Virus record (IMG/VR): IMGVR_UViG_3300044630_004720
DNA: 64,000 nucleotides
Direction: 5' to 3' (one strand)
Source: a virus
Taxonomy: Duplodnaviria > Caudoviricetes
Position 1 is the first letter of the stretch. The number at the start of each line of letters is the position of its first letter. Below are positions 14,135-48,743 of the stretch, one piece after another. The notes beneath the pieces were generated by a model that ran no database searches, had not been told where the DNA came from, and saw only the letters and a program-made list of their open reading frames with translations. Position numbers and translations under genes: made by a program.

Positions 14135-15540
14135 GTCACAAATTAGGAATCTGTATACCTTATAGAAATAGGAAACATCATATAGATAAATTAATACCGA
14201 ACCTATCAAAATATTTAACAAAACATAAAATTGACCATAAATTTTATGTTGGACATCAAGTTGATGACAAATTATTTAATAGAGGTGCAATGAAAAACAT
14301 CGCAGCTCATTATGCATTTCAAGAGGGTTGCGACTACATAGCTTGGCACGATGTTGATATGTTACCATATGATGAACAAGGTGTGATTCCTGATTATACA
14401 TATCCTGCCGAACATCCGAGACACATTGCAACAAGACTTTCCAAATACAATTACGGAATATTATATGACCAATACTTCGGAGGAGTGGTTCTTTTCACAA
14501 AAGAACAAGCACTTCAAACAAATGGGTATTCAAATGATTATTGGGATTGGGGTCAAGAAGACGATGATTTATTTTGGAGAGCACATTTTGAAGGGATGAC
14601 AACTGGAAGAGTTATCAAAACTTACCAAAATAAAAAAGTAGCAAACTTTAATGGTGATGATTCTTATTTAGTAATTCCCACAAATAGAGAGTTAAGTTCT
14701 TGTTTACATAATGACCACACAATTACAATAACCTTCAATGCGGAACAACAGGACCACAAAGTTCCAATTTGGTTGGTGGGAGATACTCAAAAGAGATTTG
14801 TAGAATATCCATTACTAAGAAAAGATGGTTCATTTACTTGGGGGATTTCATTCAATAATTCAAGAGCGGTAACAATGTCTCTTTTAGATAGAGAATCAAG
14901 AAATCACTACAATTGGGCAAAACGTTTTGAGGGGATGTGGACACAAGTAACTTTATCATATAATAGTGAGGAAAAGAATGCGTATTTTTACGTAAATGAT
15001 GAATTGATTTCACAGATGAACGGAATAAAACAAGGTATACCGTTCCCTATAGGTAGAGACCTTAAAACACACGATGGTATAAAACCATTTTTATTAGGTT
15101 TTTGTAATCATATGAAAACTTTTTACAAAGGAAAAATTTCTGATGTAAAAATATATGACACATATTTTAGCGACATCAATGAAATGGAATCTAACACTGA
15201 AAATTTAGTAATGGATTTCAATGATGTTAATGAAAAACTGATTAATAACAATGTTACATTCACAAATGAAGACATTGAAATTATAGAGAACATCGTTCCT
15301 TATAGAAAACAAGGAATGTTTTATTGTTTACCACACCAAGACGAAGGTTTTATCAATGGTAAGTGGGCGAAGGGTGAAACAACCGCAAGAAATGAAAAAC
15401 GTTTCGTAACTGAAATGCAACAAAAGAAAATAAATTATAAAGAGGAAGGTTTAAATAAAATTACTGAAGTAACTGAAATTGTTGAACTAGATGAAAAATT
15501 GTATCCAAATACAATGTTCATAAATTGTAAAATGAAATGA
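14131..15540 (+). CDS. GT7 glycosyltransferase with inserted LamG-like domain (paralogue)
   Basis: CIPYRNR, FNRGAMKN, WHDVD, YFGGV, GYSNDYWDWGQEDDDL. The insert has WTQVTLSY...YFYVND...YKGKISDVKIYD. Confidence 0.8.
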   Translation: MSHKLGICIPYRNRKHHIDKLIPNLSKYLTKHKIDHKFYVGHQVDDKLFNRGAMKNIAAHYAFQEGCDYIAWHDVDMLPYDEQGVIPDYTYPAEHPRHIATRLSKYNYGILYDQYFGGVVLFTKEQALQTNGYSNDYWDWGQEDDDLFWRAHFEGMTTGRVIKTYQNKKVANFNGDDSYLVIPTNRELSSCLHNDHTITITFNAEQQDHKVPIWLVGDTQKRFVEYPLLRKDGSFTWGISFNNSRAVTMSLLDRESRNHYNWAKRFEGMWTQVTLSYNSEEKNAYFYVNDELISQMNGIKQGIPFPIGRDLKTHDGIKPFLLGFCNHMKTFYKGKISDVKIYDTYFSDINEMESNTENLVMDFNDVNEKLINNNVTFTNEDIEIIENIVPYRKQGMFYCLPHQDEGFINGKWAKGETTARNEKRFVTEMQQKKINYKEEGLNKITEVTEIVELDEKLYPNTMFINCKMK

Positions 15541-16955
15541 TAGATTTTAATATAACTAAAGATAAACTTAATGGTGTTGGTTGTGGATTTTGCCTCGCAA
15601 AGTGGACACAAGTAACAATGCATTTACACAATGGGACAACCCATTCTTGTCACCACCCGTCACCACATAAGGTACCTTTAGACGAAATCGAGAGGAACTA
15701 CACTGCACTTCACAATAGCAATACAAAAAAGTATGCTCGTAAAGAAATGTTAACGGGTAAGAGACCGAAAGAATGTGGATATTGTTGGAATGTTGAAGAT
15801 AATTCTAATTCATTTTCAGATAGAATATTTAAAAGTGCGGAACCTTGGAGTGAACCATATTTCGATGAAGTATCCAATTTACATTGGAGAGCAGATTACA
15901 ATCCAAAATATGTTGAGGTAAACTTTTCAAATACGTGTAATTTTAAATGTGCCTATTGCGGACCTGAGTACTCTACAAAATGGATGGAGGAAATAAATGA
16001 GTTTGGTGAATATAAATTGGGTTTCGACTATAATGGTATGAAACAAATGGATGACAATAAAACCAGACCATATAAACAAACTGAGTTTAATCCTTATGTT
16101 GAAGCATTTTGGAAATGGTGGCCTGAGTTATATCAGACATTAGATACTTTCAGAATTACAGGTGGAGAACCTTTATTGTCTAAAGATACTTGGAAGGTGT
16201 TAGATAAGATAATTGAAACCGAGGAACCTAATAGAGAATTAAAATTATCGATTAACAGTAATTTAGGAGTTAATGATGAATTGATAGATAGATTAATCTT
16301 AAAATTGGATAAGATAATTAGTGAGGACCGAGTTAAGGAAGTTGTCATCTTTACATCTTGTGATGCGTACGGCAAGCAATCCGAATATGTTAGATACGGA
16401 TTAAACTTTGAACAACTTTTTAGTAACATAGATAAAATTCTAACAGTACTCCCTAAAGTAACTGTCGTCATAATGTCGACGTTTAACATCTTTAGTATAT
16501 TCTCATACGAAATGTTGATAAAGAAGGTGTTAGACCTAAAACTTAAACATTTCAACACCGAAAGATATTGGAATTCGGCACTCATTTTAGACACTTCTTA
16601 TCTTAGGTTCCCTGAGTTCCTAAGTTTCAGAATACTAAAAGGTTTCTTAGATGTTGAGTATTTCAATAGGTGGGAGAAGTTTATGAAATTCAATTCAACC
16701 TACAGAAGTTTAAATTTCTACGAGCAACAAACAATCGATGATGTTGGATTTTCAACCAAAGAGATAGAAAAAATAACGAGAATAAAAGACCTATTCATTA
16801 GTGACTCTAAATCGGATATTTCATTTGATGACAATAAAAGAGATTTTGTGATGTTTATCGATGAATATGAAAAAAGAAGAGGATTGAATTGCCAAGAATA
16901 TTATCCTGAATTAACTGACTTTATAAAAAATATAAGAAATGAGAATAAGATTTAA
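15537..16955 (+). CDS. Radical SAM enzyme with N-terminal Cys-rich (Twitch/SPASM-like) segment
   Basis: CNFKCAYC (CxxxCxxC), RITGGEP, and N-terminal FCLAKW..SCHH..ECGYCW. Confidence 0.85.
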   Translation: MIDFNITKDKLNGVGCGFCLAKWTQVTMHLHNGTTHSCHHPSPHKVPLDEIERNYTALHNSNTKKYARKEMLTGKRPKECGYCWNVEDNSNSFSDRIFKSAEPWSEPYFDEVSNLHWRADYNPKYVEVNFSNTCNFKCAYCGPEYSTKWMEEINEFGEYKLGFDYNGMKQMDDNKTRPYKQTEFNPYVEAFWKWWPELYQTLDTFRITGGEPLLSKDTWKVLDKIIETEEPNRELKLSINSNLGVNDELIDRLILKLDKIISEDRVKEVVIFTSCDAYGKQSEYVRYGLNFEQLFSNIDKILTVLPKVTVVIMSTFNIFSIFSYEMLIKKVLDLKLKHFNTERYWNSALILDTSYLRFPEFLSFRILKGFLDVEYFNRWEKFMKFNSTYRSLNFYEQQTIDDVGFSTKEIEKITRIKDLFISDSKSDISFDDNKRDFVMFIDEYEKRRGLNCQEYYPELTDFIKNIRNENKI

Positions 16956-17682
16956 AGAACCGTATTGGGTAAAATATAAATGGGATTTAGATACTCACCA
17001 CGAGAATCAATATGTTACAAAATTTAATAAAACAGATATTGAAGAAATAAAGACATTATTTCACCAAGAAAAATTTGTTGTAACCATAGAGGCAAGAGTT
17101 TTAGATGTCTATAGTCGAGACAGTGTTTTCGCGTTGTATGGAAAACCTGGAAAGAATATGGGGTTAACATATAATAATGAAAGTAAGATAATGGCATTTG
17201 AATTTTGGACAAAGTCGGATACCGAAGAATGGGATGATTTTAACTTTGTTTCTTTTGATAATGTTAGACCTGAAGATATTAAAAATGGTGTTACATTATC
17301 TGTTGCAAGAAACAAGGATTCATTCACTCTATATAAAAATTTCGAACCTGTAAATAAAATTAGATTTAAGAATAATCTAATTGATGATTACAAATACACT
17401 GGTTTGTTTTTAGGTTGCGGTAATCCCGGTTCTCCCGTTCCTGAACATCGACAACACGGAGAATATGATATCCATCATTTCTCTATTTTACAAAATACTT
17501 CTGACATAAAATATGCAAGAGAAATATACGAATCAAAACCGGAGGTTTTACTAAAGAAACCATTTTATTCTGATATTTTATGTCTTTATAATTTTAAAAC
17601 AATCAACAACATCGGAATCATATTCGATGAATCTAAAAACAATAATTTTTTAGAAAGAGTACCTAACGATTTCGTATTGTAA
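16939..17682 (+). CDS. Stand-alone LamG-like protein related to the GT7 inserts
   Basis: LFLGCGNP matches FYIGVGNP in 12719-14134. Similar beta-strand pattern and terminal xDxSxNxN. Confidence 0.45.
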   Translation: MRIRFKEPYWVKYKWDLDTHHENQYVTKFNKTDIEEIKTLFHQEKFVVTIEARVLDVYSRDSVFALYGKPGKNMGLTYNNESKIMAFEFWTKSDTEEWDDFNFVSFDNVRPEDIKNGVTLSVARNKDSFTLYKNFEPVNKIRFKNNLIDDYKYTGLFLGCGNPGSPVPEHRQHGEYDIHHFSILQNTSDIKYAREIYESKPEVLLKKPFYSDILCLYNFKTINNIGIIFDESKNNNFLERVPNDFVL

Positions 17683-17719
17683 GTATTTTTTTTTATATTT
17701 TAATTAAATTGAAAATATT

Positions 17720-19174
17720 ATGTCTAATGAACTAAGAGAATGGCGAAATAAAAACCTTAATTGTGTAAGTAAAAGTTTCTGTGCTGCTAAATGGTATAAT
17801 GCAAGTTTACATTTGGGACACGGATACACCAATTCTTGCCATTTACCACTCCCACACCCAATTGATTTGGAGGAGATTAAAACAAATCCATCAGCATTAC
17901 ATAACACCAAACATAAGAAAGAAGCACGAAGAATGATGTTGACAGGTATTAGACCTGCTGAATGTTCTTATTGTTGGAAAATTGAAGATATTGGTAGAGA
18001 CAACATATCTGACCGAGTTTATAAGAGTCAGATTTATAGTGAAGAGGACATTGCACTATTGAAAGATATTCCATATGATGAAGATATACTACTTAAAACC
18101 GTAGAGGTAAGCTTTGACAGAATTTGTAATTTTGCTTGTAGTTATTGTAACTCTGGTTATAGTACTACTTGGGCAAAAGACATTAAGAATAACGGAGCAT
18201 ATCAAAAGTTTCAAACAAGTAGTGCAGGTGCTTATTATGCTGACGGGTCTTGGTCTGAAAAGTGGGGTAAATTTAATGAAAAGAACCCATATGTACAGGC
18301 ATTTTTAGAATGGTGGCCTGAACTTTCAAAGACACTACAGGAGATTAGAATTACGGGTGGAGAACCATCACAGAGTCACAATTTTTGGGAGTTTATTGAA
18401 GTAATGAAACAATACCCATCTGAAAATTTAAGACTCGCAGTGAACTCTAATTTGGGTTTAAACGAAGCGACACTTTTCAAACTAGTTAGTATCTCTCACG
18501 AGTTACAAATTAAAGAGTTTGACCTATATACAAGTAATGAATCATTCGGAGCTCACGCTGAATATATCAGAGATGGTTTGAAATATGATGTTTGGAGAAG
18601 TAATATGATTAAGTTCATTGAGAACGCTAAATTCCGTTCATTAACCATTATGATGACGATTAATAGTTTATGTTTATTCAGTATCACTGAGTTCTTGGAT
18701 GATATGATTATACTGAAAGAGAAATATGGACCTAACAGACCTAATGTTGATTTTAACATATTGAGATGGCCATCATTTATGTCTCCATTATCACTACCCG
18801 ATAATGTTAAATCAAAATTACATCTTAAATTAAAAACTTGGTACGATAAACATAAAGATAGTCCACTTTTTAGCATTCACGAGAAAGCTCAAATCGAAAG
18901 ATTAATTGATTATATCGAAGTTGTTAGAAGAGGTCATAACCAAACTGAGTTGGATTTTGATAAACAGGCTCACGACTTCAAAAGTTTTTATGAACAATAT
19001 GATGTTAGAAGAAATAAAGATTTCAGGGCAACATTTACAGACCCTGAATTACTTGAGTGGTATGATAGTATCAAAGTAGATTATTCAATCCCTGATGTTG
19101 AAGTAACAAACGGAGCAATAACACATTATGAACCTGGTGAGTATGTGTCAGATGTTAAAACAAATATCATTTAA
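17720..19174 (+). CDS. Radical SAM enzyme with N-terminal Cys-rich segment (paralogue)
   Basis: CNFACSYC, RITGGEP, FCAAKW..SCHL..ECSYCW. Confidence 0.85.
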   Translation: MSNELREWRNKNLNCVSKSFCAAKWYNASLHLGHGYTNSCHLPLPHPIDLEEIKTNPSALHNTKHKKEARRMMLTGIRPAECSYCWKIEDIGRDNISDRVYKSQIYSEEDIALLKDIPYDEDILLKTVEVSFDRICNFACSYCNSGYSTTWAKDIKNNGAYQKFQTSSAGAYYADGSWSEKWGKFNEKNPYVQAFLEWWPELSKTLQEIRITGGEPSQSHNFWEFIEVMKQYPSENLRLAVNSNLGLNEATLFKLVSISHELQIKEFDLYTSNESFGAHAEYIRDGLKYDVWRSNMIKFIENAKFRSLTIMMTINSLCLFSITEFLDDMIILKEKYGPNRPNVDFNILRWPSFMSPLSLPDNVKSKLHLKLKTWYDKHKDSPLFSIHEKAQIERLIDYIEVVRRGHNQTELDFDKQAHDFKSFYEQYDVRRNKDFRATFTDPELLEWYDSIKVDYSIPDVEVTNGAITHYEPGEYVSDVKTNII

Positions 19175-34943: not shown

Positions 34944-35381
34944 ATGATATACTGGTTCACAGGACAACCCGGCGCAGGTAAAACTACCCTATCAAAACAT
35001 CTGATTTCGTATTTAGAAAATACCGAAAAAGTGATTCACATTGATGGGGATGACCTAAGATTAATTTTTGAAAACAAAGACTTTTCAGAAACAGGCAGAA
35101 GAAAAAACATAGAAAGAGCACAAGACATTGCTCGTTTTATGAATGAAAAGGGATACACAGTTGTGGTGTCATTAGTTTCTCCATATAAAGATATGAGAGA
35201 TAACTTTAAAACTCACAATTCGGTGATTGAATTTTATGTACACACAACTGAAACAAGAGGAAGAGAATCGTTTCACGTGTCAAATTACGAACCCCCAACA
35301 GAAAATTTTATTGATATTAATACCACTAACAAAGATGAAAGAGAATCTTTCATCGAATTAATTAAATTTATAGATTTATGA
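34944..35381 (+). CDS. cysC: Adenylyl-sulfate (APS) kinase
   Basis: WFTGQPGAGKTTL P-loop, IDGDDLR, DFSETGRRKNI, SLVSPY..R, YEPP. Confidence 0.9.
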   Translation: MIYWFTGQPGAGKTTLSKHLISYLENTEKVIHIDGDDLRLIFENKDFSETGRRKNIERAQDIARFMNEKGYTVVVSLVSPYKDMRDNFKTHNSVIEFYVHTTETRGRESFHVSNYEPPTENFIDINTTNKDERESFIELIKFIDL

Positions 35382-35761
35382 AAAAGTATGCATTGTACAT
35401 CGGAAGATGGCAAAATTGGCACGCAGGACACGAATGGTTAATTAGCCAACAATTAGATAAAGGGAAAAATGTATGGGTGGCTATTAGGGATGTTGAAGTT
35501 GATGAGAACAACCCTAAAACCGCACAAGAAGTATTCCAAGAACTAATCAAAGTACCATTTTTTAATGAGAATTTTGATAAAATACTTCTCTCAATTATAC
35601 CTGATATCGAATCCGTAAACTATGGTAGAGGTGTAGGTTATGAGGTGATTTATCATAATCCCCCATCGGATATTGAAAGTATCAGCGGAACCAAAATAAG
35701 ACAAGGTTATATGGACAGCAACGGAGACGTTATTGTCTATTCAGTAGATGATGTGAAATGA
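35378..35761 (+). CDS. HIGH-family nucleotidylyltransferase (candidate minimal sulfate adenylyltransferase)
   Basis: YIGRWQNWHAGH (HxGH) and ISGTKIR. Overlap-coupled to cysC. Confidence 0.65.
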   Translation: MKKYALYIGRWQNWHAGHEWLISQQLDKGKNVWVAIRDVEVDENNPKTAQEVFQELIKVPFFNENFDKILLSIIPDIESVNYGRGVGYEVIYHNPPSDIESISGTKIRQGYMDSNGDVIVYSVDDVK

Positions 35762-35979
35762 TAGTAGAACGTAAAAGACACATAGCCAAAACAATATCAT
35801 ATAGAGTAGTATCAACCTTAATCGGGTTTGGTATAATGTGGTGGTTGAGTGGGGACCTTAAAGTAGGGGCGGCGTTCGGTGTCGCGGAACTTGTCTATAA
35901 ACCAATCCAATATTACATACACGAAAGAGTTTGGTATAGGTGGATAAAATACGGTTTAAAAGATAAAAATAAGTTATAA
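35758..35979 (+). CDS. DUF2061-like small membrane protein
   Basis: RHIAKTISYRVVST...YYIHERVW. Confidence 0.75.
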   Translation: MIVERKRHIAKTISYRVVSTLIGFGIMWWLSGDLKVGAAFGVAELVYKPIQYYIHERVWYRWIKYGLKDKNKL

Positions 35980-36540
35980 ATGGATAAATTATATACGGTT
36001 GAAAATTTTCTTAGTGAAAATGAATGTTTGAGTATCTTAACAAAATACAAATCCGAATTAAAACTAAAACCCGCTGAAGTGGCGGTAAAGGAGGGCAATA
36101 CATTTAGTGATAAAAGGAAATCATCCATTGCATTTATTGACGGTATAGAAACGATAGATGAGAGAATTAAGAACACATTAAAGAATCTTATACAAATCAA
36201 AGGATTTGAAGTAACAGGTTTAGGTCCATACCAATTTACGGAATATAAAGTCGGTGAGTATTATGATTGGCACACCGACTCATCATCAATTGGAGATGAA
36301 TATAAGGACAGATTTTGCTCTATTGTCATTCAGATTAATGATGAATATGATGGTGGATATCTTCAATTAAAAGATGAGAATGGAAATAATATTCAATTGG
36401 ATAAGGGTATTGGTACAATGTATATATTTTATTCAAATATAGTACATAGAGTGGTTCCGGTCACTAATGGAGTTAGGTATTCTTTAGTTAATTGGGTATC
36501 TCTTAGAAAATTAGAAAATTTTAAAAAAACACTATTGTAA
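35980..36540 (+). CDS. 2OG-Fe(II) oxygenase (prolyl 4-hydroxylase-like)
   Basis: YDWHTD, YDGGYL, HRVVPVTNGVRYSLV. Confidence 0.88.
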   Translation: MDKLYTVENFLSENECLSILTKYKSELKLKPAEVAVKEGNTFSDKRKSSIAFIDGIETIDERIKNTLKNLIQIKGFEVTGLGPYQFTEYKVGEYYDWHTDSSSIGDEYKDRFCSIVIQINDEYDGGYLQLKDENGNNIQLDKGIGTMYIFYSNIVHRVVPVTNGVRYSLVNWVSLRKLENFKKTLL

Positions 36541-36555
36541 CATACACCCATCCCA

Positions 36556-36584
36556 TTGATAAAAAAAATACCCATATTTATAAT
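36556..36584 (+). promoter_or_regulatory. sigma70-type promoter (overlaps a TATTTATA element)
   Basis: TTGATA-N17-TATAAT, 24 nt upstream of the ATG at 36609. Confidence 0.7.
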
Positions 36585-36608
36585 AGAATAAAAAAATAAT
36601 AAGACAAT

Positions 36609-38060
36609 ATGAAATCACTATTAATCGCGACGGACTTAATAAAAACAGTTTCAGGAGATGTAAAAGTACTGGAAACAAACACAAACGCTCTTGTAAATTA
36701 TAAATTTGACGATAATATACATTATTTGGATAATCTTACTGCGTTTATCCAATCCAACCAATTCCAAACGGTACATTGTATATATCCAATTTACTCTTCT
36801 AATTTTACCAAAAAGCTAAAAGAAATATGTGAATCATTAAACATATCTGTCGTTCAGCACCCTACGGATACCGGTTCAGTTACCGTTCCATACATTGAAG
36901 ATTCAGAAGATATTTTGATTATTAGAATTTCATATGATACGACTGCGATAATTGATGAGGAGTACTGTAAAGACAAATTCAAATTACAGAGCATTATTAA
37001 TAACAAAACCTATGGTTCTAAAACATTTATACCAAACGAAATAGATAATTTTGCGTCAATATCAGATTTTCAATATTCAGACGATGTACCAAATTTCATA
37101 GTAAAAAAGAGATTTCCTAATTATGATAGAGAAATTTATCCCAAATTATATAAAGTACAAAACTTGGCAGAATTAAACGAATTAAAGACTACAATAGAAT
37201 CCGATTGTTATTTACAAGAATTCCACCATTCAGAATTAGTACAGGGTAAAAGATGTGTTATAAGAAGTTTAGACCTTCTTTATGGTAGTAATTTAGATGT
37301 GTTAAATATTTGTAGTTTTTATAAGACAAACCAATTGGCTGAGAATCAATGGGAAAACACATATAATGAGGAGGGGTTGTTGGATAAAAAAGATAGACCA
37401 AAATATATAACAAACACAAACGAAAATCATAATTCTTTTTGGCCTTACGTTTATGATGTTGACCAAGAATTGGTTATGGGTGATGGAGGTAGAAAACCAT
37501 TTAATGAATTACAAATTGGTAATAGTGTTAAAACTGTACATATTGATGGGTTAGATTTGGATGAAAGAGCATATAAAATGTTTGAGTGGGTCGGAAACTA
37601 TAATGATTTTGTATCTAATATTTATCTTAAAGAAACCCAGGTAACATCTATATTTACATCTCCCCCAACATCACAATTATTTTTAAGAGTTACTTTAGAT
37701 GACGGAGTAACAGAATGGGATGATTTGAATGAAACACCCCTATTAGTTAAGGTTGGTGAAACAATAATTTTTAAGGAGTTTGGAGACCTTGAAATTGGAG
37801 ATAGTATTGTAACTTTTAACTTTGAAACTAATTTACCTGAAATTAAAAACGTACAATCTATTGATGTTGTCTTTAAAGATGAACAAGTGTTAGGTTCTAT
37901 TGATGTTGAACCAGAAGATGTCTATATGCCGTTGGTTTCACAATATATTACGATTATTCAACACAACCAATGTAATAAAGGTTGTAAAGCAACAGGATGT
38001 GCGGATGCATATTATTGTGGAGATTGTACACCTGTTTTTTGTGGACCACCCCCAAAATAA
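36609..38060 (+). CDS. Circularly permuted ATP-grasp-like domain + Hint (intein-like) domain + 30-aa Cys-rich C-terminal peptide
   Basis: N-terminal ATDLIKTVSGDVKVLETNTN, IVKKR and YLQEF resemble CP-ATP-grasp motifs. Residues 281-453 carry Hint blocks (LVMGDGGRKPFNELQIGNSV; DLEIGD; IDVE...IIQHN). Confidence 0.6.
   Translation: MKSLLIATDLIKTVSGDVKVLETNTNALVNYKFDDNIHYLDNLTAFIQSNQFQTVHCIYPIYSSNFTKKLKEICESLNISVVQHPTDTGSVTVPYIEDSEDILIIRISYDTTAIIDEEYCKDKFKLQSIINNKTYGSKTFIPNEIDNFASISDFQYSDDVPNFIVKKRFPNYDREIYPKLYKVQNLAELNELKTTIESDCYLQEFHHSELVQGKRCVIRSLDLLYGSNLDVLNICSFYKTNQLAENQWENTYNEEGLLDKKDRPKYITNTNENHNSFWPYVYDVDQELVMGDGGRKPFNELQIGNSVKTVHIDGLDLDERAYKMFEWVGNYNDFVSNIYLKETQVTSIFTSPPTSQLFLRVTLDDGVTEWDDLNETPLLVKVGETIIFKEFGDLEIGDSIVTFNFETNLPEIKNVQSIDVVFKDEQVLGSIDVEPEDVYMPLVSQYITIIQHNQCNKGCKATGCADAYYCGDCTPVFCGPPPK
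37449..37967 (+). other. Hint/intein-like domain (Val281-Asn453), C-terminal His-Asn retained, N-terminal Cys and block-B TxxH absent
   Basis: VYDVDQELVMGDG aligns to the CxxxxTxVxMADG pattern. The terminal codons cac-aac (HN) lie at 37962-37967. Confidence 0.65.
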
Positions 38061-38096
38061 ATTTAAAAATAAAAATAAAAATAAAAATTATATATT

Positions 38097-38207
38097 ATGT
38101 TAATACAAACTATATTTGCACCTACGGAACAAGGAACTAAAACAGGAGTTGAAACCACAATACAAGATATGGTTTTAACAATTTTATCCGATGTCCAATC
38201 TTCTTAA
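38097..38207 (+). CDS. Small Thr-rich peptide, 36 aa (not in ORF track)
   Basis: MLIQTIFAPTEQGTKTGVETTIQDMVLTILSDVQSS fills the gap between two genes and has an A-rich leader. Confidence 0.55.
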   Translation: MLIQTIFAPTEQGTKTGVETTIQDMVLTILSDVQSS

Positions 38208-38228
38208 TTAATTGTTTAATTCAAACCG

Positions 38229-38522
38229 ATGCCAATAGATATACGAGAAATTACGGTAGCTTGGTGGGATTCTTATTTTGCGGATGATAATCAAAAAAAA
38301 TTAGCTAAAGAAAGGTTAAGTATTTGTGAAAGTTGTCCATCATTAGAACAAAAATTTAAAAAAATAAGAAAAATAACTATTAGTGTTTGCGGAGAATGTG
38401 GATGCCCAATTACCAAAAAAGTATTTTCAAATAAGTTTAATGCGTGTCCTTTGGGTAAATGGAAAGAAGTAGATGAATCACAACCAGAATTTTTTAAAAT
38501 TAAAAAGGATAAATTAATATGA
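38229..38522 (+). CDS. Small Cys-rich, probably Zn-binding protein (DUF6171-like)
   Basis: RLSICESCP...CGECGCP...CPLGKW. Confidence 0.6.
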   Translation: MPIDIREITVAWWDSYFADDNQKKLAKERLSICESCPSLEQKFKKIRKITISVCGECGCPITKKVFSNKFNACPLGKWKEVDESQPEFFKIKKDKLI

Positions 38523-39118
38523 GTTACCCCTTTTATCAGGAAGTTATTTTTACAGACGAAGAGTGTAAAAAAATAATAGAATATTCTAAAGTTTATCCTG
38601 CAAATGCTGAAAAGAGAAAATTAGAACCTAATATAAATCTTGAAACAAATAGGGCGGAACAAAATATACCATCTATTGATGGAAAGAAAAAAGGAAAAGC
38701 CTTCTTTGTTTATGATATTGATAGGGAGGAAAATACAGAATGGGTTTTTCAAAAACTATTAAATTGGTTTCAAAAAGTTTCAAATATTAAATTAAAAGAA
38801 ACACATACATTAAATGGTATGACTCTACTTAACTATAAAGTTGGTGATTTTTTTATGAGACATACTGACATATATCCAAATTTTGAGTGGAGGAGATGGA
38901 CAATAAACATTCAGTTGGGTGACCAATATAAAGGAGGTGATTATGTTTTATATTTGGATGAGAAGGAAATTGTTTTGAACAAAGAAGTAGGTAACGCAAT
39001 TGCATATTGGGCAGGAACCGAACACGAAGTTAAAGAAATCAAAGAAGGTGAAAGATGGTCTATTGTGTGTTCGGTGGGAAAACACCTGATTATTGAGAAC
39101 GAAAAAAAGTTATTGTAA
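38519..39118 (+). CDS. 2OG-Fe(II) oxygenase
   Basis: RHTD, YKGGDY, EHEVKEIKEGERWSIV. Confidence 0.85.
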   Translation: MSYPFYQEVIFTDEECKKIIEYSKVYPANAEKRKLEPNINLETNRAEQNIPSIDGKKKGKAFFVYDIDREENTEWVFQKLLNWFQKVSNIKLKETHTLNGMTLLNYKVGDFFMRHTDIYPNFEWRRWTINIQLGDQYKGGDYVLYLDEKEIVLNKEVGNAIAYWAGTEHEVKEIKEGERWSIVCSVGKHLIIENEKKLL

Positions 39119-39119
39119 A

Positions 39120-39818
39120 ATGTCATTATTAATAAATAATGAATTAATTTGGATATCTGTTCCAAGATGTGCCAGTTATTCAATCGAAACATCTTTTTAC
39201 AACTCAAATTTAAAAATAGAACATTATAATAATTCGTTTAATCATTTAGCACCGGGTGATGTTGGGTTTGTACACGAACACTTTAATTTATATAATTTAA
39301 ATAATAGATGGTTAAATAAAAAAACAATTAGAATCAAAAGAGACTGGATGGAAAGATGGTTATCTGCTTTAGAACATCTTTGGTTCAGTATTGAGAAAGC
39401 AAACAATAGAAAGCCTATTATACCTTATGAGGAAATTGATAACGATTTTATTTATCAAACATTCACAAAAAAATTTGGAAATGAACTATATTCTGAAGGA
39501 GGTCAGTATAAAATATTTTACCATTTAATAAAAGATTTTGTACTTACAGAAAGTTTCAAATTAGGAACGAGGACCGGATTACTATGGTCTCAAAACTATT
39601 GGTTAAGTGGTGAAAAAAAGTGTGACTTCGAATTTGATATAAATGAATTAGATAAGTTCGCGGATTTTATCGAAAAAAAGTATGGTGAAAAATTAATTAT
39701 TGAACATCAAAACAAATCAAAAAAGAAAACGAACAAAATCATTATAAATGATGATTTAAAAAATCACATATGGGATGTCTTTGAATCTCCATTTCATAAA
39801 GTTTCAAAAATTTTTTAA
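39120..39818 (+). CDS. Sulfotransferase family 2-like protein
   Basis: WISVPRCASYSI (5'-PSB loop) and RDWMERWLSA (3'-PB), SQNYWL. Start re-set to MSLLIN. Confidence 0.65.
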   Translation: MSLLINNELIWISVPRCASYSIETSFYNSNLKIEHYNNSFNHLAPGDVGFVHEHFNLYNLNNRWLNKKTIRIKRDWMERWLSALEHLWFSIEKANNRKPIIPYEEIDNDFIYQTFTKKFGNELYSEGGQYKIFYHLIKDFVLTESFKLGTRTGLLWSQNYWLSGEKKCDFEFDINELDKFADFIEKKYGEKLIIEHQNKSKKKTNKIIINDDLKNHIWDVFESPFHKVSKIF

Positions 39819-39835: not shown

Positions 39836-40207
39836 ATGATTATTAAAAATGAAATTCAATTAGAGGTAAAATATATAGACGAAACAATGGGTTTTGGTGT
39901 TTTTGCTCTTCAAGATATTGATGAAGGTATTATTGTTGAAACTTGTTATAGTATTAAAACATATAACCAAGTGTTTAATCCTTGTTTTGATTACCTTTTT
40001 AGTTTAAGTAACACGGAATCCTTATTACCTTTGGGATATGGTTCAATATATAATCATAGTTACACACCAAATATACATTGGAGAATAGTAAATATGGAAA
40101 AATCAGTCATTGAATTTTACGCACTAAAAAAAATAAGGACGGGTGATGAGTTGTGCCACAACTATGGGCAACACTATTGGAAAGTGAGGGAAAAAAAATT
40201 ATTATAA
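39836..40207 (+). CDS. SET-domain protein (Lys methyltransferase fold)
   Basis: GFGVFA..DI..G, YNHSYTPN, ALKKIRTGDELCHNYG. Confidence 0.88.
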   Translation: MIIKNEIQLEVKYIDETMGFGVFALQDIDEGIIVETCYSIKTYNQVFNPCFDYLFSLSNTESLLPLGYGSIYNHSYTPNIHWRIVNMEKSVIEFYALKKIRTGDELCHNYGQHYWKVREKKLL

Positions 40208-40230: not shown

Positions 40231-40896
40231 ATGTCAAATCTTTGGACATTTGGAGATTCGTTTACGGCGGGCGATGGATGTGTGGAAAATATACCTATTA
40301 GAGATGGTGATTTTAAATATTATAACGAATATAAACAATCAGATAGTGATATATGGCCAAACATATTAGGTGAAACTATTAGATATAACGTAAAAAATAT
40401 GGGAAAAAGTGGGGCAAGTAATGATTATATTTTAGATTCTATTATTGACAATTTCAATATGATAGAACCAGATGATGTAGTTATAATTGAAAAAACATTT
40501 TACCAAAGATTCGATGTTCCTAAATTAAATAGTAATGAATTTCACACAATATATGGTGAAGCGCTTTATATAATGGATACTGATTTAAAAAAAAATAAAT
40601 ATAATAAAGATAAATTAGAAATTGAAACAATATTAAATTATGGTGTTTTATTTTGTCAAAACTCTTTGTTTCAGGAAAGGCAGAACAAACGATTTCGATT
40701 TATTCAAACATTATTAAAATCAAACGTAAAAAAAATTTTAATTTGGGATATTGATAGTGATTTAAGAAAATCAATCGAAACAATTTCACAACATACAAAA
40801 GGTAAAATAAAGGATTATCATTTTAGCTTTAATGGTCATAAAGAATTTAGTGAACTGCTGTATAAAAAATTATTTACTAAACCCATATTAATTTAA
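40231..40896 (+). CDS. SGNH/GDSL-like protein (copy 2)
   Basis: WTFGDSFTAG, GKSGASN, DYHF. Confidence 0.6.
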   Translation: MSNLWTFGDSFTAGDGCVENIPIRDGDFKYYNEYKQSDSDIWPNILGETIRYNVKNMGKSGASNDYILDSIIDNFNMIEPDDVVIIEKTFYQRFDVPKLNSNEFHTIYGEALYIMDTDLKKNKYNKDKLEIETILNYGVLFCQNSLFQERQNKRFRFIQTLLKSNVKKILIWDIDSDLRKSIETISQHTKGKIKDYHFSFNGHKEFSELLYKKLFTKPILI

Positions 40897-40915: not shown

Positions 40916-41413
40916 ATGATAGTACAAAGACAAATTTTTACTGAAATCGAATGTACCCAAATAATAAATTTAATAAAGGAAAATCAAAATATTTGGGAGA
41001 ATAGTGATAGGAGATATGAATCTAAGTCAATATTCTATAATGAAAAAACTAAATGGATTTTCGATAAGATGGTTAATTTTTTCCAAGAATCCACGCACCA
41101 TCAAATTTTAGAACTAAAAAAAGAAATTCATTTTCACACATACAATAAAGGCGATTGGTTCGGTAAACACAATGACACTAGAGATAGGAGAGTATACTCT
41201 GTGGGTGCATTGTTAAATTCTGATTTTGATGGAGGAGATTTTAAAATATATACCCCACAGGAAACGACATTAACTAAAAATGCAGGCAATGCGTATGTAT
41301 TTGATGTGACTTATGAACACGAAATAACAAGAATTACTAACGGAATCAAATATTCAATTATATGGTTCGTACAAGATAATCACATTAAAATTAAACAATT
41401 ATCAATTATATAA
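40916..41413 (+). CDS. 2OG-Fe(II) oxygenase
   Basis: GKHND, FDGGDF, EHEITRITNGIKYSI. Confidence 0.82.
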   Translation: MIVQRQIFTEIECTQIINLIKENQNIWENSDRRYESKSIFYNEKTKWIFDKMVNFFQESTHHQILELKKEIHFHTYNKGDWFGKHNDTRDRRVYSVGALLNSDFDGGDFKIYTPQETTLTKNAGNAYVFDVTYEHEITRITNGIKYSIIWFVQDNHIKIKQLSII

Positions 41414-44081: not shown

Positions 44082-47000
44082 ATGAAAATATTTGACGCAC
44101 ACATATCCGGGTCTTTATCCGTATCGAGCTCAGCTCACATTGAAGGGGATTTAACGGTTTTAGGTACGTTATTTGCAACTGTTAGTGGTACAACCACCAA
44201 CGCATTAACGGCCTCTGAGGCTCCGAGGTATACACTTACTTCGAGTTTTAACTCATTTACCTCTTCATATACAACAGGTTCTTTCACCGGTTCATTTATC
44301 GGTGATGGAGGTAATTTATATAATATTCCGGCTAGTGGAGTTACCGGACTTAATCTTAACAAAATAACCAGCGGGAGTGTTAGTGCGTCAATCTCTCCTG
44401 ACAGAGGTTTAGAAGTTAATACCGACTTAAATGTTGTGGGTATAATCACAGCAAAAGAAATCCACACATCAATTGTTACATCATCGGTACTTTTTGAATC
44501 GGGTTCAACAATATTCGGTAACACTTCAGATGACACTCACCAAATAACAGGTTCGGTTGGTATAACGGGTTCATTAACTTTAAATAATGACCCTGTTGTT
44601 GTTAACACCACATTTAATTCTTTCACATCAAGTGCGAATGGTAGACTAAATTCAATCGAAACCTCAACGAGTTCATTAAATAGTTTCACGTCGAGTGCTA
44701 ATGGAAGATTATCTTCAATTGAGGGAGTAACAGGTTCAATTACATTATTAAATACCTACACAGGTAGTAACAATACGGTGATTGGTACGTTACAAACGTC
44801 CACCAGTAGTTTAAATTCATTTACTTCATCTATTGATACCACAATTAAAAATAAACTTAATAGTGATAATGTAATATCTGGTTCGGCACAAGTTATAATT
44901 ACAGGAACCACAGGATATTCCAATTTTAGTTCTTCGATTGGATTTACAACAATTACAATTGAAAACAGAGTAGGTTCTTTAGAGACTGAAAGTGGAAGTA
45001 TAAGAACAGACTTCAATAGTTACACCTCATCAAACAACGGCACAAATACAACTCAAAACAATAGATTAACAGCAATAGAAACCTCTACAGGTTCACTAAA
45101 TACATTTACATCTTCTGCCAGTGGTCGTTTAAATTCACTTGAATCAACTAGTGGAGCATTAAACACGTATACATCAAGTGCGAATGGTAGACTAAATTCA
45201 ATCGAAACCTCAACAGGAAGTCTTAATTCCTTTAGTAGTTCTACATTAAGTAGTTTAACCGCGATTCATACTTCAACAGGTTCATTGAATACATTCAGTT
45301 CATCTACATTAACAAGATTAACAAATTTAGAAAGTGCTAGCTCTTCAATTAGAAGTGATTTCAATTCCTACACATCAAGCGCAAATGGTAGACTAAGTTC
45401 AATTGAAACATCAACAGGTTCATTGAACACGTTTAGTTCGTCAACATTAACGAGATTAACCGCAATTGAAACGTCAACAAGTAGTTTAAATTCATACACG
45501 AGTTCGAACACTACAAATATAAATGCCATTCATACTGCAACTGCAAGTTTGAATTCATTCTCTTCAAGTGCGGATGGTAGACTAACATCTATTGAGGGGG
45601 TAACAGGTTCAATTGCGGCGTTGAATACTTACACAGGTTCAAATAACACCGCAATCAATGCGTTAAATTCTTATACGAGTAGTAACACTACTAATATTAA
45701 TGCGATTCATACCGCAACAAGTAGTTTAAATTCATACACAAGTAGTAACACGACAAACATAAATGCTATCCATACTGCAACAAGTAGTTTAAATAGTTTT
45801 ACAAGTAGTGCTTCGGGTAGATTAACCGCGTTAGAAACTGCATCAAGTAGTTTAAATTCTTACACAAGTAGTAACACAACCGCAATTACTGCGTTGAATT
45901 CATTTACCACATCATTTAATACTGCATTTGGTTTAAGTGGTGCAAACGTTACCGTTAAAGGTAATTTAACCGTACAAGGTTCCACAACTCAAGTTGATTC
46001 GACAACTGTTAATATTGGTGATAACATTATTCAATTAAATGGTACAGGGGCAACCAATGCAGGTATTGTTGTTAGAGATGCGACATCACCAACACTTACT
46101 TCAGGTTCATTCCTTTGGGACTCAACAAATGATAAATGGGTTGCAGGTCCATTAGGTTCTGAAGACGAAGTTGTATTAAAGACAGCATCACAAGCATTAA
46201 CAAACAAAACAATTAGTGGAGGTTCTAACACATTATCAAATATTGGTAACTCTTCACTTACAAATAGTTCAATCACAATTGCGGGTACGAGTACATCATT
46301 AGGGGGTTCAATAACCGCAGCAACGATATTAACATCCACAGGTGTTTGGTCAGGTTCCGCACAATTACCATCAGGAGTTGTTAGTGGTTCTGCACAGGTA
46401 ATTGCAAATTTACCATCAGGAACTGTATCAGGTTCTTCCCAAGTACTTGCAGGGACAACAATACATTCGGGAGCGTTTTTTAATGGAATATCTGTTGTGT
46501 CTGGTTCTGGTCAAATATCTTTTAACGGAATCACTGATAAACCTACGTTGGTTTCAGGTTCTTCACAAGTATTAAACGGAAGTGGAGTTTGGTCAGGTTC
46601 CGCACAACTTCCAAGTGGAGTTGTTTCGGGTTCATCACAAATAACATTTGGTTCAATAAGTAGTATACCATCAGGACTAGTATCAGGTTCATCACAAATA
46701 ACATTTGGTTCAATAAGTAGTATACCATCAGGTTTAGTTTCAGGTTCATCTCAAATTGCAATCGCGTCAACAAGTGGGTTTGGAACATATTTGAACCAAG
46801 CTGTTTTAACAACATCAACACCAACATTTGACCAGGTTATTACAAGTAACAACGGTAATGGTACAAACTTTAGATTAGGGGACGACACTTGGATAGGTGA
46901 TATTAATGTTGCAAATACTTTTAGAGTTACGGGTCTCCAAGATGCCACACAAGGTTACATTGTATTTGGTAACAGTAACGCAACGGCATTAGGTAGAAGT

Positions 47001-48743
47001 GGTACAGGAGCATTAACATATGGTGGAAACACAATATGGCACGCAGGGAACGATGGTTCGGGTACAGGATTAGATGCGGATTTATTAGATGGTAGTCACG
47101 CATCTGCGTTCTCACCTGTGGCAGGTAGTTCATCAATAACAACTGTTGGAACAATTAGTAGTGGTACTTGGAATGGTTCTTCCATTTCAACAACATACAC
47201 AGACGCAAAAGTTACAAGTGTAAGTGCAGGTACTGGAATTAGTGTAAATGCTACGACAGGTGCTGTTACAGTGACCAACACCGGCACATTAACCGTAGCA
47301 GGAACTGCAAACCAAGTATTAATAAATGGTGGAACAGCGGCCGCTAATGGTAACATTACATTATCGTTACCACAAAGTTTAGGTACAGGTAGTTCACCAA
47401 CATTTGCCGCAATTACAGTTGGTAAATCGGGAACCGATTCAACAATTACGTTCCCCGCACAAACCAATGACCCAGGCTATATTAAACATTATGAAAGTAA
47501 TAACACCGCAATAATGTACTTTAACGTATCTGACGATACGAATGATGAGTTTCATTTTGGTTATAGTGCAGACGCTTCAACATTTAGATTAAGAGCGGAC
47601 GGTGTTGTTCTAGAGGGTACTTGGCAAGGTTCTGCAATTGGTGATTCATATATTAGTTCTGCGTCAAATTGGAATACAGCATATAATAAGAGACCATCAT
47701 CTTTAGGTTTTACAAGTTCAACTGTAACATTAACACTTGGGGATGGTTCTACCGTCACAGCATCTGTACCGACATTTAATCAGAATACAACAGGTAATGC
47801 TGGATATGCAACTACGGCAGGTGCATTAACTTCAATGAATATATCTCAGTTCACTAACAACTCAGGATATATTACCAGTTCTTCAACAATTAGTGGAGCT
47901 GCTGGTAGACTTTCAACTAGAGATTTAAGAACTATTGCACCTAACTCCGAGAATGCTGCGGAATTAAGATTTGGATTTACATCTTTCGCTAATAATAATA
48001 CATCTCCTTGGGCTGATTACTTACATCTTCGTTCGTATAGTGATGGTAGTGGTGGTGCTGACAATTTAGTGATGTTTTCAAAGAGTGGTATTGGTATGAG
48101 AATATACCAACAAACATTTGGTTCAGGGACTGCATATTCATCATACGCGGACGTACTGCATTCTTCTAATTACAACTCTTATTCACCAACCTTAACAGGT
48201 ACAGGTGCGTCTGGAACTTGGGGTATCAACATCACAGGTAATGCTGCAACACTTGGTAATATATCGGCATCAGGTTTTTGGCAAGCTAGTGGTTCTTGGG
48301 GTGCGGATTTAACATCAAATGGGTATACAAGACAGATTGGTCTCGCATACGCTGGTGGAGAATTTGTTATATTAACAAGTAGTGGACAAATTTCGACTTT
48401 AATTGACGGTTCATATTTTGCTGGTGAACAAGGAGGTTTTTACTCAATGAATACATCAAACCAATTTTCATCTAGAGTTGGTTTTAACAGAGATAGTAGT
48501 GGTAACGCATCGTTTAACGCTAGTATTGTTCCAACAACAAATGGTACTTTGAACTTAGGTTCGTCATCGGCTAGATGGAACACAGTGTTCACATCTGACT
48601 TAAGTATGTCGAATGGCATTGGTGATTATACAATTGTTGAAGGTGAAGAAGATTTATTTATTTATAATAATAAAACCAATAAGGTGTTCAAGTTCTTATT
48701 ACAAGAAGTTGACTCATCAATAGTACCGGCTAAAAAGATTTAA
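44082..48743 (+). CDS. Giant Ser/Thr-rich fibre-like protein B (paralogue of fibre A)
   Basis: Shares GSFIGDG..LYNIPASGVTGL, SGSTxFG..DDTHQ, S/T repeats, GxVSGSxQ repeats and the C-terminal module (WNTVFTSDL..YTIVEGEEDLFIYNNKT). Confidence 0.75.
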   Translation: MKIFDAHISGSLSVSSSAHIEGDLTVLGTLFATVSGTTTNALTASEAPRYTLTSSFNSFTSSYTTGSFTGSFIGDGGNLYNIPASGVTGLNLNKITSGSVSASISPDRGLEVNTDLNVVGIITAKEIHTSIVTSSVLFESGSTIFGNTSDDTHQITGSVGITGSLTLNNDPVVVNTTFNSFTSSANGRLNSIETSTSSLNSFTSSANGRLSSIEGVTGSITLLNTYTGSNNTVIGTLQTSTSSLNSFTSSIDTTIKNKLNSDNVISGSAQVIITGTTGYSNFSSSIGFTTITIENRVGSLETESGSIRTDFNSYTSSNNGTNTTQNNRLTAIETSTGSLNTFTSSASGRLNSLESTSGALNTYTSSANGRLNSIETSTGSLNSFSSSTLSSLTAIHTSTGSLNTFSSSTLTRLTNLESASSSIRSDFNSYTSSANGRLSSIETSTGSLNTFSSSTLTRLTAIETSTSSLNSYTSSNTTNINAIHTATASLNSFSSSADGRLTSIEGVTGSIAALNTYTGSNNTAINALNSYTSSNTTNINAIHTATSSLNSYTSSNTTNINAIHTATSSLNSFTSSASGRLTALETASSSLNSYTSSNTTAITALNSFTTSFNTAFGLSGANVTVKGNLTVQGSTTQVDSTTVNIGDNIIQLNGTGATNAGIVVRDATSPTLTSGSFLWDSTNDKWVAGPLGSEDEVVLKTASQALTNKTISGGSNTLSNIGNSSLTNSSITIAGTSTSLGGSITAATILTSTGVWSGSAQLPSGVVSGSAQVIANLPSGTVSGSSQVLAGTTIHSGAFFNGISVVSGSGQISFNGITDKPTLVSGSSQVLNGSGVWSGSAQLPSGVVSGSSQITFGSISSIPSGLVSGSSQITFGSISSIPSGLVSGSSQIAIASTSGFGTYLNQAVLTTSTPTFDQVITSNNGNGTNFRLGDDTWIGDINVANTFRVTGLQDATQGYIVFGNSNATALGRSGTGALTYGGNTIWHAGNDGSGTGLDADLLDGSHASAFSPVAGSSSITTVGTISSGTWNGSSISTTYTDAKVTSVSAGTGISVNATTGAVTVTNTGTLTVAGTANQVLINGGTAAANGNITLSLPQSLGTGSSPTFAAITVGKSGTDSTITFPAQTNDPGYIKHYESNNTAIMYFNVSDDTNDEFHFGYSADASTFRLRADGVVLEGTWQGSAIGDSYISSASNWNTAYNKRPSSLGFTSSTVTLTLGDGSTVTASVPTFNQNTTGNAGYATTAGALTSMNISQFTNNSGYITSSSTISGAAGRLSTRDLRTIAPNSENAAELRFGFTSFANNNTSPWADYLHLRSYSDGSGGADNLVMFSKSGIGMRIYQQTFGSGTAYSSYADVLHSSNYNSYSPTLTGTGASGTWGINITGNAATLGNISASGFWQASGSWGADLTSNGYTRQIGLAYAGGEFVILTSSGQISTLIDGSYFAGEQGGFYSMNTSNQFSSRVGFNRDSSGNASFNASIVPTTNGTLNLGSSSARWNTVFTSDLSMSNGIGDYTIVEGEEDLFIYNNKTNKVFKFLLQEVDSSIVPAKKI
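44600..45910 (+). repeat. ~21-aa S/T-rich repeats in fibre B (SLNSYTSSNTTNINAIHTATS etc.)
   Basis: Recurrent units in the translation. Boundaries are approximate. Confidence 0.8.
46629..46732 (+). repeat. Exact 47-bp direct repeat, period 57 bp (19 aa)
   Basis: ggttcatcacaaataacatttggttcaataagtagtataccatcagg at 46629 and 46686. Confidence 0.9.

Follow-up and report, generated by a model that had tools for sequence, protein, structure and literature searches.

The gene at positions 36609..38060 (+) of IMG/VR virus record IMGVR_UViG_3300044630_004720, a 64,000-nucleotide (nt) stretch of Caudoviricetes DNA that is called the window below, raises the question of whether a phage protein can combine a ligase, a small peptide and the means of releasing that peptide in one chain. 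The frame is open throughout, as initially annotated, and translates into 483 amino acids (aa; protein P0001) comprising a minimal circularly permuted ATP-grasp ligase domain (aa 1-272, 36609..37424), a Hint domain (aa 281-453, 37449..37967) and a 30-aa Cys-rich tail (aa 454-483, 37968..38057), all on the + strand. Folds and conservation show this three-part layout, of which we are very nearly certain. The best explanation, which we consider somewhat probable, is that a freshwater T4-like jumbo phage encodes an enzyme and a peptide as one self-processing fusion, with the tail as the putative released peptide. The gene does not stand alone, being the core of a multi-gene module.

Domain layout of the fusion protein

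No Pfam, PHROG or PDB-sequence model matched the whole protein, and a family profile compared with PDB sequences gave weak intein matches and nothing else. For the ligase domain, no Pfam family was found at E values up to 1 (GSP_synth and CP_ATPgrasp_1/2 included), nor any PDB sequence match. AlphaFold2 (AF2) models reached a predicted local distance difference test (pLDDT) score of 87.3 over the full length and, when aa 1-272 were modelled alone, of 90.4. When the latter region was used in an exhaustive structural search, we found E. coli glutathionylspermidine synthetase (GspS; 2io7, Z 9.9), YgiC (7uka, Z 9.8; Foldseek E 1e-7), trypanosome and plant (homo)glutathione synthetases (2wyo and 3kaj, Z 9.1), the ligase Cp1B (Z 8.2) and trypanothione synthetase (Z 8.0), in agreement with the permuted, GspS-like ATP-grasp fold that the initial annotation had expected here. 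Classical ATP-grasps (TTLL, LysX/ArgX, RimK, ITPK1, PurK, bacterial GshB and a ligase of ribosomally synthesized and post-translationally modified peptides, RiPPs) gave Z 4.7-7.0 and aligned with the model only from residue 45-54 onward. Since GspS, YgiC and the glutathione synthetases (GS) match over the full length but classical members only from about residue 50, the domain is permuted in the manner of eukaryotic GS and GspS, a circular permutation reportedly described for the eukaryotic enzyme by Polekhina and colleagues in 1999.

The first 25 residues form a hairpin carrying the motif D9-x12-E22-x-N24, with a spacing that we take to be that of the Mg ligands D257, E270 and N272 of DdlB; in classical ATP-grasps the D...E-x-N motif lies near the C-terminus. 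The initial annotation had read the motif with seven residues between its acidic partners, and its E22-x-N24 stands, with D9 rather than D17 as the other acidic residue. The remaining motifs lie where they were placed, with the N-terminal hairpin at aa 7-26, IVKKR at 164-168, YLQEF at 201-205, DLNETP at 372-377 and His-Asn at 452-453. In an alignment of 326 sequences, in which the number covering each position varies, D9 is found in 305/305, E22 in 307/309, N24 in 309/309, R106 in 314/314, K166 in 316/317 and R219 in 310/311. We infer metal- or ATP-binding roles for these six residues from motif likeness, and because hardly any of more than 300 sequences departs from them, the predicted ATP-grasp enzyme is very probably active.

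For aa 281-453, the initial annotation had proposed a Hint fold without the N-terminal nucleophile, and both Foldseek and hhalign support it. The Hint model matches Hedgehog structures 1at0 and 6tyy with a TM-score of 0.80 normalized to the target (root-mean-square deviation of 2.9 Å to 1at0) and more than 40 inteins and bacterial intein-like (BIL) domains (2lwy and 6y75 among the best) at E values from 8e-9 to 1e-5. AFDB and BFVD also returned Hint matches; those from BFVD were to Hint domains only, with no named two-domain relative. When 29 copies of this first Hint were compared by hhalign with 13 genuine second Hints found in relatives (98%, E 3e-13), Cys1 paired with V281, Thr B:7 with L373, His B:10 with T376, His F:13 with D437 and the terminal His-Asn with H452-N453. 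The Val at position 1 and the missing block-B Thr-x-x-His noted earlier are thus both borne out. Across the family, position 1 is H, I, V or L and never Cys, positions 375-376 are variable, and the place of the C-extein +1 nucleophile is taken by A, P, L, S, Y, V and others, with Cys at +2 in 269 of 282 sequences. The N-terminal Gln of the tail, previously suggested as a source of pyroglutamate, is therefore not a family feature. By sequence, the fusion protein is not an intein, having neither Cys1 nor Thr-x-x-His nor the +1 nucleophile.

The other end of the domain shows the opposite pattern. N453 is conserved in 295/295 sequences and H452 in 290/296, so that the His-Asn pair, whose conservation had been proposed as a check, is kept in essentially all relatives. 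Judged from these alignments, the domain has lost what N-terminal cleavage and splicing require, and the end that serves Asn cyclization in inteins is under absolute constraint. The codons for His452 and Asn453 (37962..37967, +) mark the predicted cyclization site, with N453-Q454 as the scissile bond, on the strength of conservation and of the catalytic roles known from inteins, where His F:13, His G:6 and Asn G:7 catalyse Asn cyclization (PMC4031507). C-terminal cleavage can also take place in inteins off-pathway, without the earlier steps (PMC4031507).

Beyond this site lies a tail with six Cys in the pattern C-x3-C-x4-C-x5-C-x2-C-x4-C, a mass of 3098.6 Da when reduced and a final Lys. Among 295 family members, 226 end in a plain tail, 25 continue from the tail into a complete Hint, 14 into an S74-like domain and 26 have other long ends, leaving four with almost no tail; a Cys tail is present in about 95% of members. 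The 265 cores that could be extracted have a median length of 31 aa and mostly contain six (185) or eight (44) Cys, the rest having 10, 12, 14 and up to 16, with Lys among the last four residues in 204. The number of Cys is even in 263 and odd in only two, and paired cysteines are therefore favoured. A hypervariable tail with conserved Cys spacing had been put forward as a further check, and we found a fast-changing tail on a conserved Cys scaffold: identity at its non-Cys positions falls to 0.40 where the domains are 0.70 identical and to 19% where they are about 50% identical. In 18 disjoint pairs, the nonsynonymous rate (dN) of the tail is 0.20 versus 0.07 for the domains, about three times faster, and its ratio to the synonymous rate (dN/dS) is 0.20-0.25 versus 0.11-0.13. 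With such a ratio, the tail is fast-evolving yet selected coding sequence under purifying selection.

The longer C-terminal variants bear on how the tail is bounded. The second Hint of 25 relatives starts with Cys and closes with His-Asn and a few Lys, and in one of them (P0095) its best Pfam match is PT-HINT. The S74-like ends match Pfam weakly and under its cut-off (E 4e-4 to 0.02); a profile of 13 of them matches the GA-1 neck-appendage chaperone domain (3gud, E 0.015) from the Ser-Asp cleavage motif onward. Either module would remove whatever lies beyond the tail, and its presence supports, at the level of sequence, a tail that is a separate entity with a defined C-terminus. Among four distant relatives (P0263, P0267, P0268 and P0254), some have a complete Cys1...His-Asn Hint of 280-300 aa directly after the His-Asn of the first, and P0254 has its Cys-rich stretch behind the second Hint rather than the first. 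Extra Hint modules seem to be attracted to the junction between the first Hint and the tail.

Gene module, expression and viral context

The initial annotation had regarded this as a single-gene system, a view that the neighbourhood does not support. When we compared 81 loci (42 groups at 80% identity), each with a single copy of the fusion gene, a micro open reading frame (micro-ORF), a zinc-ribbon-like protein, 2-oxoglutarate (2OG) oxygenases and sulfotransferase-like genes were found to be conserved together with it. The unannotated micro-ORF (36 aa, 38097..38207, +) lies inside the 168-nt gap 3' of the fusion gene; a small hidden Markov model (HMM) finds a homologous 36-50-aa ORF beginning 1-25 nt past the fusion-gene stop in about 60 of the 81 loci and elsewhere in them gives a single weak match (E 0.04). 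It is also present in the S74 and second-Hint variants, and one homologue, of 41 aa, is annotated as a gene on a contig in ENA; an Atlas search with the micro-ORF gave no usable match. The product begins with a strand-like stretch, is rich in Ser/Thr in its middle and has an amphipathic helix at its C-terminus. Four metagenomic relatives (P0085, P0105, P0113 and P0142) carry in-frame deletions by which the Hint and the Cys tail are lost and the micro-ORF peptide directly follows the ATP-grasp domain, itself truncated near residue 240 or 340; they may reflect gene decay, faulty assembly or a genuine alternative architecture. Between the fusion-gene stop and the micro-ORF of the window, four tandem AAAAAT units occupy 38065-38088.

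The gene that follows (38229..38522, +) encodes a 97-aa Cys-rich, zinc-ribbon-like protein whose family (about 95 aa, six invariant Cys, weakly DUF6171-like) occurs in 74 of the 81 loci at a median distance of 980 nt from the fusion gene; an Atlas search with it returned viral hypothetical clusters only. Prediction of a complex between this protein and the fusion protein scored 0.02, which is evidence for neither side. Strict loss of this gene together with the Cys tail was considered and rejected, given that three loci with full 10-kb flanks have the tail without the gene.

Most of the remaining partners resemble tailoring enzymes. The 2OG-Fe(II) oxygenase family is found in 78 of the 81 loci with two to four copies per locus, the window having three (35980..36540, PF13640 and prolyl 4-hydroxylase-like; 38519..39118; 40916..41413; all +), and a further cluster of about 243-aa proteins with a weak 2OG match occurs in 72. 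Two sulfotransferase-like families (70 and 66 loci) have motifs of the 5'-phosphosulfate-binding (PSB) loop and weak profile matches to heparan-sulfate 2-O-sulfotransferase and NodH; the member in the window (cluster c241, 39093..39818, +, the family of 70 loci) carries a PSB-loop-like PRCASTS and an R-x7-S motif and matches heparan-sulfate 2-O-sulfotransferase at E 0.001. A SET-domain methyltransferase (39836..40207, +) and a GDSL/SGNH-like hydrolase (40231..40896, +) recur in 18 and 43 loci. Upstream, an adenosine-5'-phosphosulfate (APS) kinase-like gene, a 127-aa gene and a DUF2061 gene (34944..35979, +) each recur in 29-40 loci at no more than 10 kb from the fusion gene; together with the two sulfotransferase-like families this trio resembles a set for supplying and using 3'-phosphoadenosine-5'-phosphosulfate, in which the 127-aa gene might conceivably encode an ATP-sulfurylase.

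Other loci add further enzymes. A flavin-dependent Trp-halogenase (Pfam E 1e-103), absent from this window, occurs in 46 of the 81, for example at L019:13238-14770, a few genes from the fusion gene, and Tyr/Trp-rich tails are candidate substrates for it. Radical S-adenosylmethionine (SAM) enzymes occur in 25 loci and a carbamoyltransferase in 19; the window has two radical-SAM-like genes of about 475 aa with weak PHROG matches at 15537-19174 (+), whose homologues lie three or four genes from the fusion gene in other phages. Farther away in the window are two giant ORFs (35-6436 and 44082-48743, both +) of 2133 and 1553 aa with coiled-coil DUF7310/DUF7365 matches, each trailed by Laminin_G_3 genes; they are probably fibre proteins, and in 13 loci homologues lie at a distance of about 9 kb from the module. 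Two tandem genes of about 470 aa (12719-15540, +) each encode a beta-1,4-galactosyltransferase-like domain (Glyco_transf_7N/7C) fused to a Laminin_G_3 domain.

Hints of expression come from two sources. Of the sigma-70-like promoter matches in the region, the best (TTGATA-17-TATAAT, 11/12; 36556..36584, +) lies 25 nt before the start codon; it is a consensus match only, and the region shows no enrichment in such sites. Four RNA libraries from lakes or freshwater (three studies) contain contigs that cover, mostly with 0-2 mismatches, the upstream gap and gene start (36497-36630), a part inside the gene (36943-37242) and a segment with the tail and the micro-ORF that reaches into the start of the 97-aa gene (38023-38281); a contig from a more diverged relative covers another inside part (37800-37990, 10 mismatches). 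These contigs are compatible with transcription without proving it, as DNA carry-over is possible.

To place the gene among known viruses, relatives of the fusion protein were collected, 137 by a word-indexed search and 230 cluster representatives by an exhaustive one, mostly of 476-510 aa and some of 540-760 aa; wherever a source names them, they are labelled 'hypothetical protein'. In IMG/VR, 313 viral contigs carry a relative, the closest (92% identity) being on a 176-kb contig. By tblastn and megablast we found no match in 50,697 cultured or deposited phage records, and no relative among prokaryotes (one genome for each of 185,579 species), where the single peptide pattern used leaves absence unproven. 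Complete records with relatives (288 kb with terminal repeats, and 238 kb) encode T4 Gp23 at E 1e-77, and a third has the T4 portal gene. One relative in a 'GVMAG' contig raised a possible giant-virus origin, which was ruled out by the lack of a capsid of nucleocytoplasmic large DNA viruses and by T4 Gp23 and the T4 portal in its place. The exact stretch, with a G+C content of about 31% over the window, was found again in lake-water metagenomes from at least 14 studies. Given the T4 capsid and portal genes, the lack of matches in phage records and prokaryotes and the recurrence in lakes, this is a phage-only gene family of uncultured T4-like jumbo phages, here from freshwater.

Proposed release and modification of the tail

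In the sequence of events that we favour, Asn453 of the folded protein would cyclize to a succinimide and break the N453-Q454 bond, freeing a six-Cys peptide of about 3.1 kDa with a new alpha-amine. Such Asn453-dependent release is somewhat more probable than not because of the invariance of His-Asn, the autoprocessing modules that bracket the tail in relatives and the way the tail evolves. On weaker grounds, the ligase would then act on a peptide carboxylate, either that of the exposed tail C-terminus or that of the micro-ORF product. Its structural relatives GspS, YgiC/YjfC, eukaryotic GS and Cp1B activate a carboxylate, mostly the C-terminal one of a short peptide, and join it to an amine. 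YgiC and YjfC are given as peptide-spermidine ligases by Pederick 2023, as relayed in PMC12568646. This chemistry by analogy, and the conserved exposed C-terminus, make action on the tail's own end, by cyclization or amine capping, possible though doubtful, and action on the micro-ORF product or the zinc-ribbon-like protein is less likely again. The 2OG oxygenases and sulfotransferase-like proteins, and elsewhere the halogenase and radical-SAM enzymes, would decorate the product, and the outcome would be a phage-made, RiPP-like modified Cys-rich peptide. The locus does share with RiPP clusters a variable core on a conserved scaffold and tailoring enzymes conserved beside the putative precursor. 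In its fullest form, the Hint would free the amine, the ATP-grasp enzyme would cyclize the tail head-to-tail or cap it with a polyamine-like amine, and the hydroxylated, sulfated or halogenated product would act on the host or on competitors; we think it unlikely that this whole one-polypeptide route to a natural product is correct.

Several points weigh against this reading. All of the cleavage and ligation chemistry is inferred. Block-F position 13 (D437) is Asp in 244 of 297 sequences and His in only 32, and some inteins couple C-terminal cleavage strictly to the earlier splicing steps (PMC4031507), which this Hint cannot carry out; coupling of this kind, together with the Asp at F:13, is the main caveat for the predicted cleavage at Asn453. 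The AF2 model places the tail at pLDDT <50 and does not dock it to the ligase. There is no signal peptide in the fusion protein, and disulfides would have to await lysis or export before they could form. Glycans could instead be the target of the sulfotransferase-like and 2OG genes, the window being rich in glycosyltransferases. Lastly, tail-less relatives retain the ligase, the Hint with its His-Asn, the micro-ORF and tailoring genes; in one of them (P0177, locus L081), we found the micro-ORF and the 2OG, sulfotransferase-like, SET and APS-kinase genes, with the 95-aa gene absent. The enzyme must therefore have a role independent of the Cys tail, which is not its only possible substrate.

If the Hint-derived domain cut nothing, His-Asn would be a structural or binding element and the tail an attached metal-binding or disulfide docking module. 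The loss of Cys1, Thr B:7 and His B:10, the mostly Asp F:13, the zinc-knuckle-like CxxC in 222 of 265 tails and the overall purifying selection on the tail (dN/dS 0.2) would all suit such a protein. Yet an Asn in 295 of 295 sequences at the very last Hint position is hard to explain without Asn chemistry when the other motifs have been lost, and it is established that Hedgehog-type Hints, none of which to our knowledge cuts at its C-terminus, lack the terminal His-Asn. Non-Cys tail positions evolving about three times faster than the enzyme, an even Cys count reaching 16 that suits disulfide pairs better than a single metal site, and further autocleaving modules after the tail in relatives also argue against a docking module, and we regard it as unlikely. 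Somewhat less likely is that the ligase serves the micro-ORF peptide or the 97-aa protein as a LysW/LysX-like carrier, with Hint and tail as an accessory such as a removable regulatory cap. The micro-ORF is the most constant partner of the fusion gene, directly past its stop in about 60 of 81 loci and in the tail-less variant too, natural in-frame deletions join the ligase straight to it, and LysX/ArgX-LysW complexes are among the structural matches (Z 6), all of which makes its peptide a serious alternative substrate. The deletion variants, however, also truncate the ligase, which perhaps marks them as dead or misassembled genes, about 95% of members keep the Cys tail, and the C-terminus of the micro-ORF product is not conserved between subfamilies.

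We also considered a virion- or fibre-associated protein with a C-terminal host-binding or assembly tip, whose neighbours would modify virion glycans or fibres. S74-like chaperone domains, typical of phage fibres and spikes, do end some relatives, the module has giant coiled-coil ORFs and Laminin_G_3 genes on its flanks in this locus and in others, and many glycosyltransferases are present in the window. With its intact ATP-grasp active site and a two-domain model that looks monomeric, the protein is nevertheless unlike a fibre, no PHROG structural family matches, and the S74 matches themselves are weak, making this a very improbable explanation. Self-processing with release of the Cys-rich peptide remains the explanation that we prefer.

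Significance and comparison with known systems

If the tail is released and modified, hundreds of uncultured T4-like phages of lakes and other aquatic habitats would share a way of making ribosomal peptide natural products that is widespread and specific to phages, with enzyme, release device and cargo in one chain. It would include a natural Hint reduced to an asparagine-lyase 'release switch', give a very small permuted ATP-grasp a function, and suggest substrates for many enzymes that are orphans in large aquatic phages, namely 2OG-Fe(II) oxygenases, sulfotransferases and halogenases. Two predicted parts would be attractive tools: a C-terminal self-cleaving tag of 173 aa that has no N-terminal nucleophile, and a peptide ligase of 272 aa. 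Even without release of the tail, this is a large, unannotated and conserved family of phage enzymes with a defined gene module. Full-text literature searches returned no description of an ATP-grasp-Hint-peptide fusion in phages, in keeping with the earlier impression of an undescribed architecture. We regard the fusion as a variation on kinds already known, with a genuine chance of turning out to be a new kind of peptide-maturation system.

Each part has its counterpart. The ligase shares with GspS, YgiC and eukaryotic GS the permuted topology and the Mg-binding D...E-x-N hairpin ahead of the rest, but has 272 aa rather than 380-480, is only 8-14% identical to them and is fused to a Hint and a peptide. 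Similar to Hedgehog and Hog proteins, to which the Hint has its best TM-score, a cargo is fused to a Hint autoprocessing domain; Hedgehog, however, lacks the terminal His-Asn and uses Cys1 to cut at the N-terminal end of its Hint, so that the polarity is reversed in the phage protein. BIL and PT-HINT domains are likewise Hint folds in non-splicing proteins whose self-cutting ends free a neighbouring polypeptide. They retain the N-terminal Cys/Ser and block B that are both lost here (V281, L373 and T376), their cargo is a toxin domain rather than a Cys-rich peptide of 23-100 aa, and the partner here is an ATP-grasp ligase. In the second-Hint relatives, the order of a Hint ending in His-Asn, a peptide and then a Hint starting with Cys is that of SICLOPPS, the engineered cyclization system, and the Cys1 Hint after the tail would activate the tail end as a thioester.

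Among RiPPs, the microviridin-like graspetides also have an ATP-grasp enzyme beside small peptides in a tailoring cluster. Their ligases are RimK-like, non-permuted ATP-grasps, in contrast to the permuted phage ligase, and the phage tail lacks conserved pairs of Asp/Glu with Ser/Thr/Lys. A graspetide-type system was ruled out by ligase class, with 7mgv (Z 4.9, from residue 52) and RimK (Z 5.4-5.5) matching over a partial range. In borosin-type precursors such as OphMA, a methyltransferase is fused to its own C-terminal core peptide, so that an enzyme and a ribosomal peptide that may be its substrate share one polypeptide, as they do here. Borosins need a separate protease, whereas in the phage protein the enzyme is an ATP-grasp and the predicted release device, a Hint acting by Asn cyclization, is built in.

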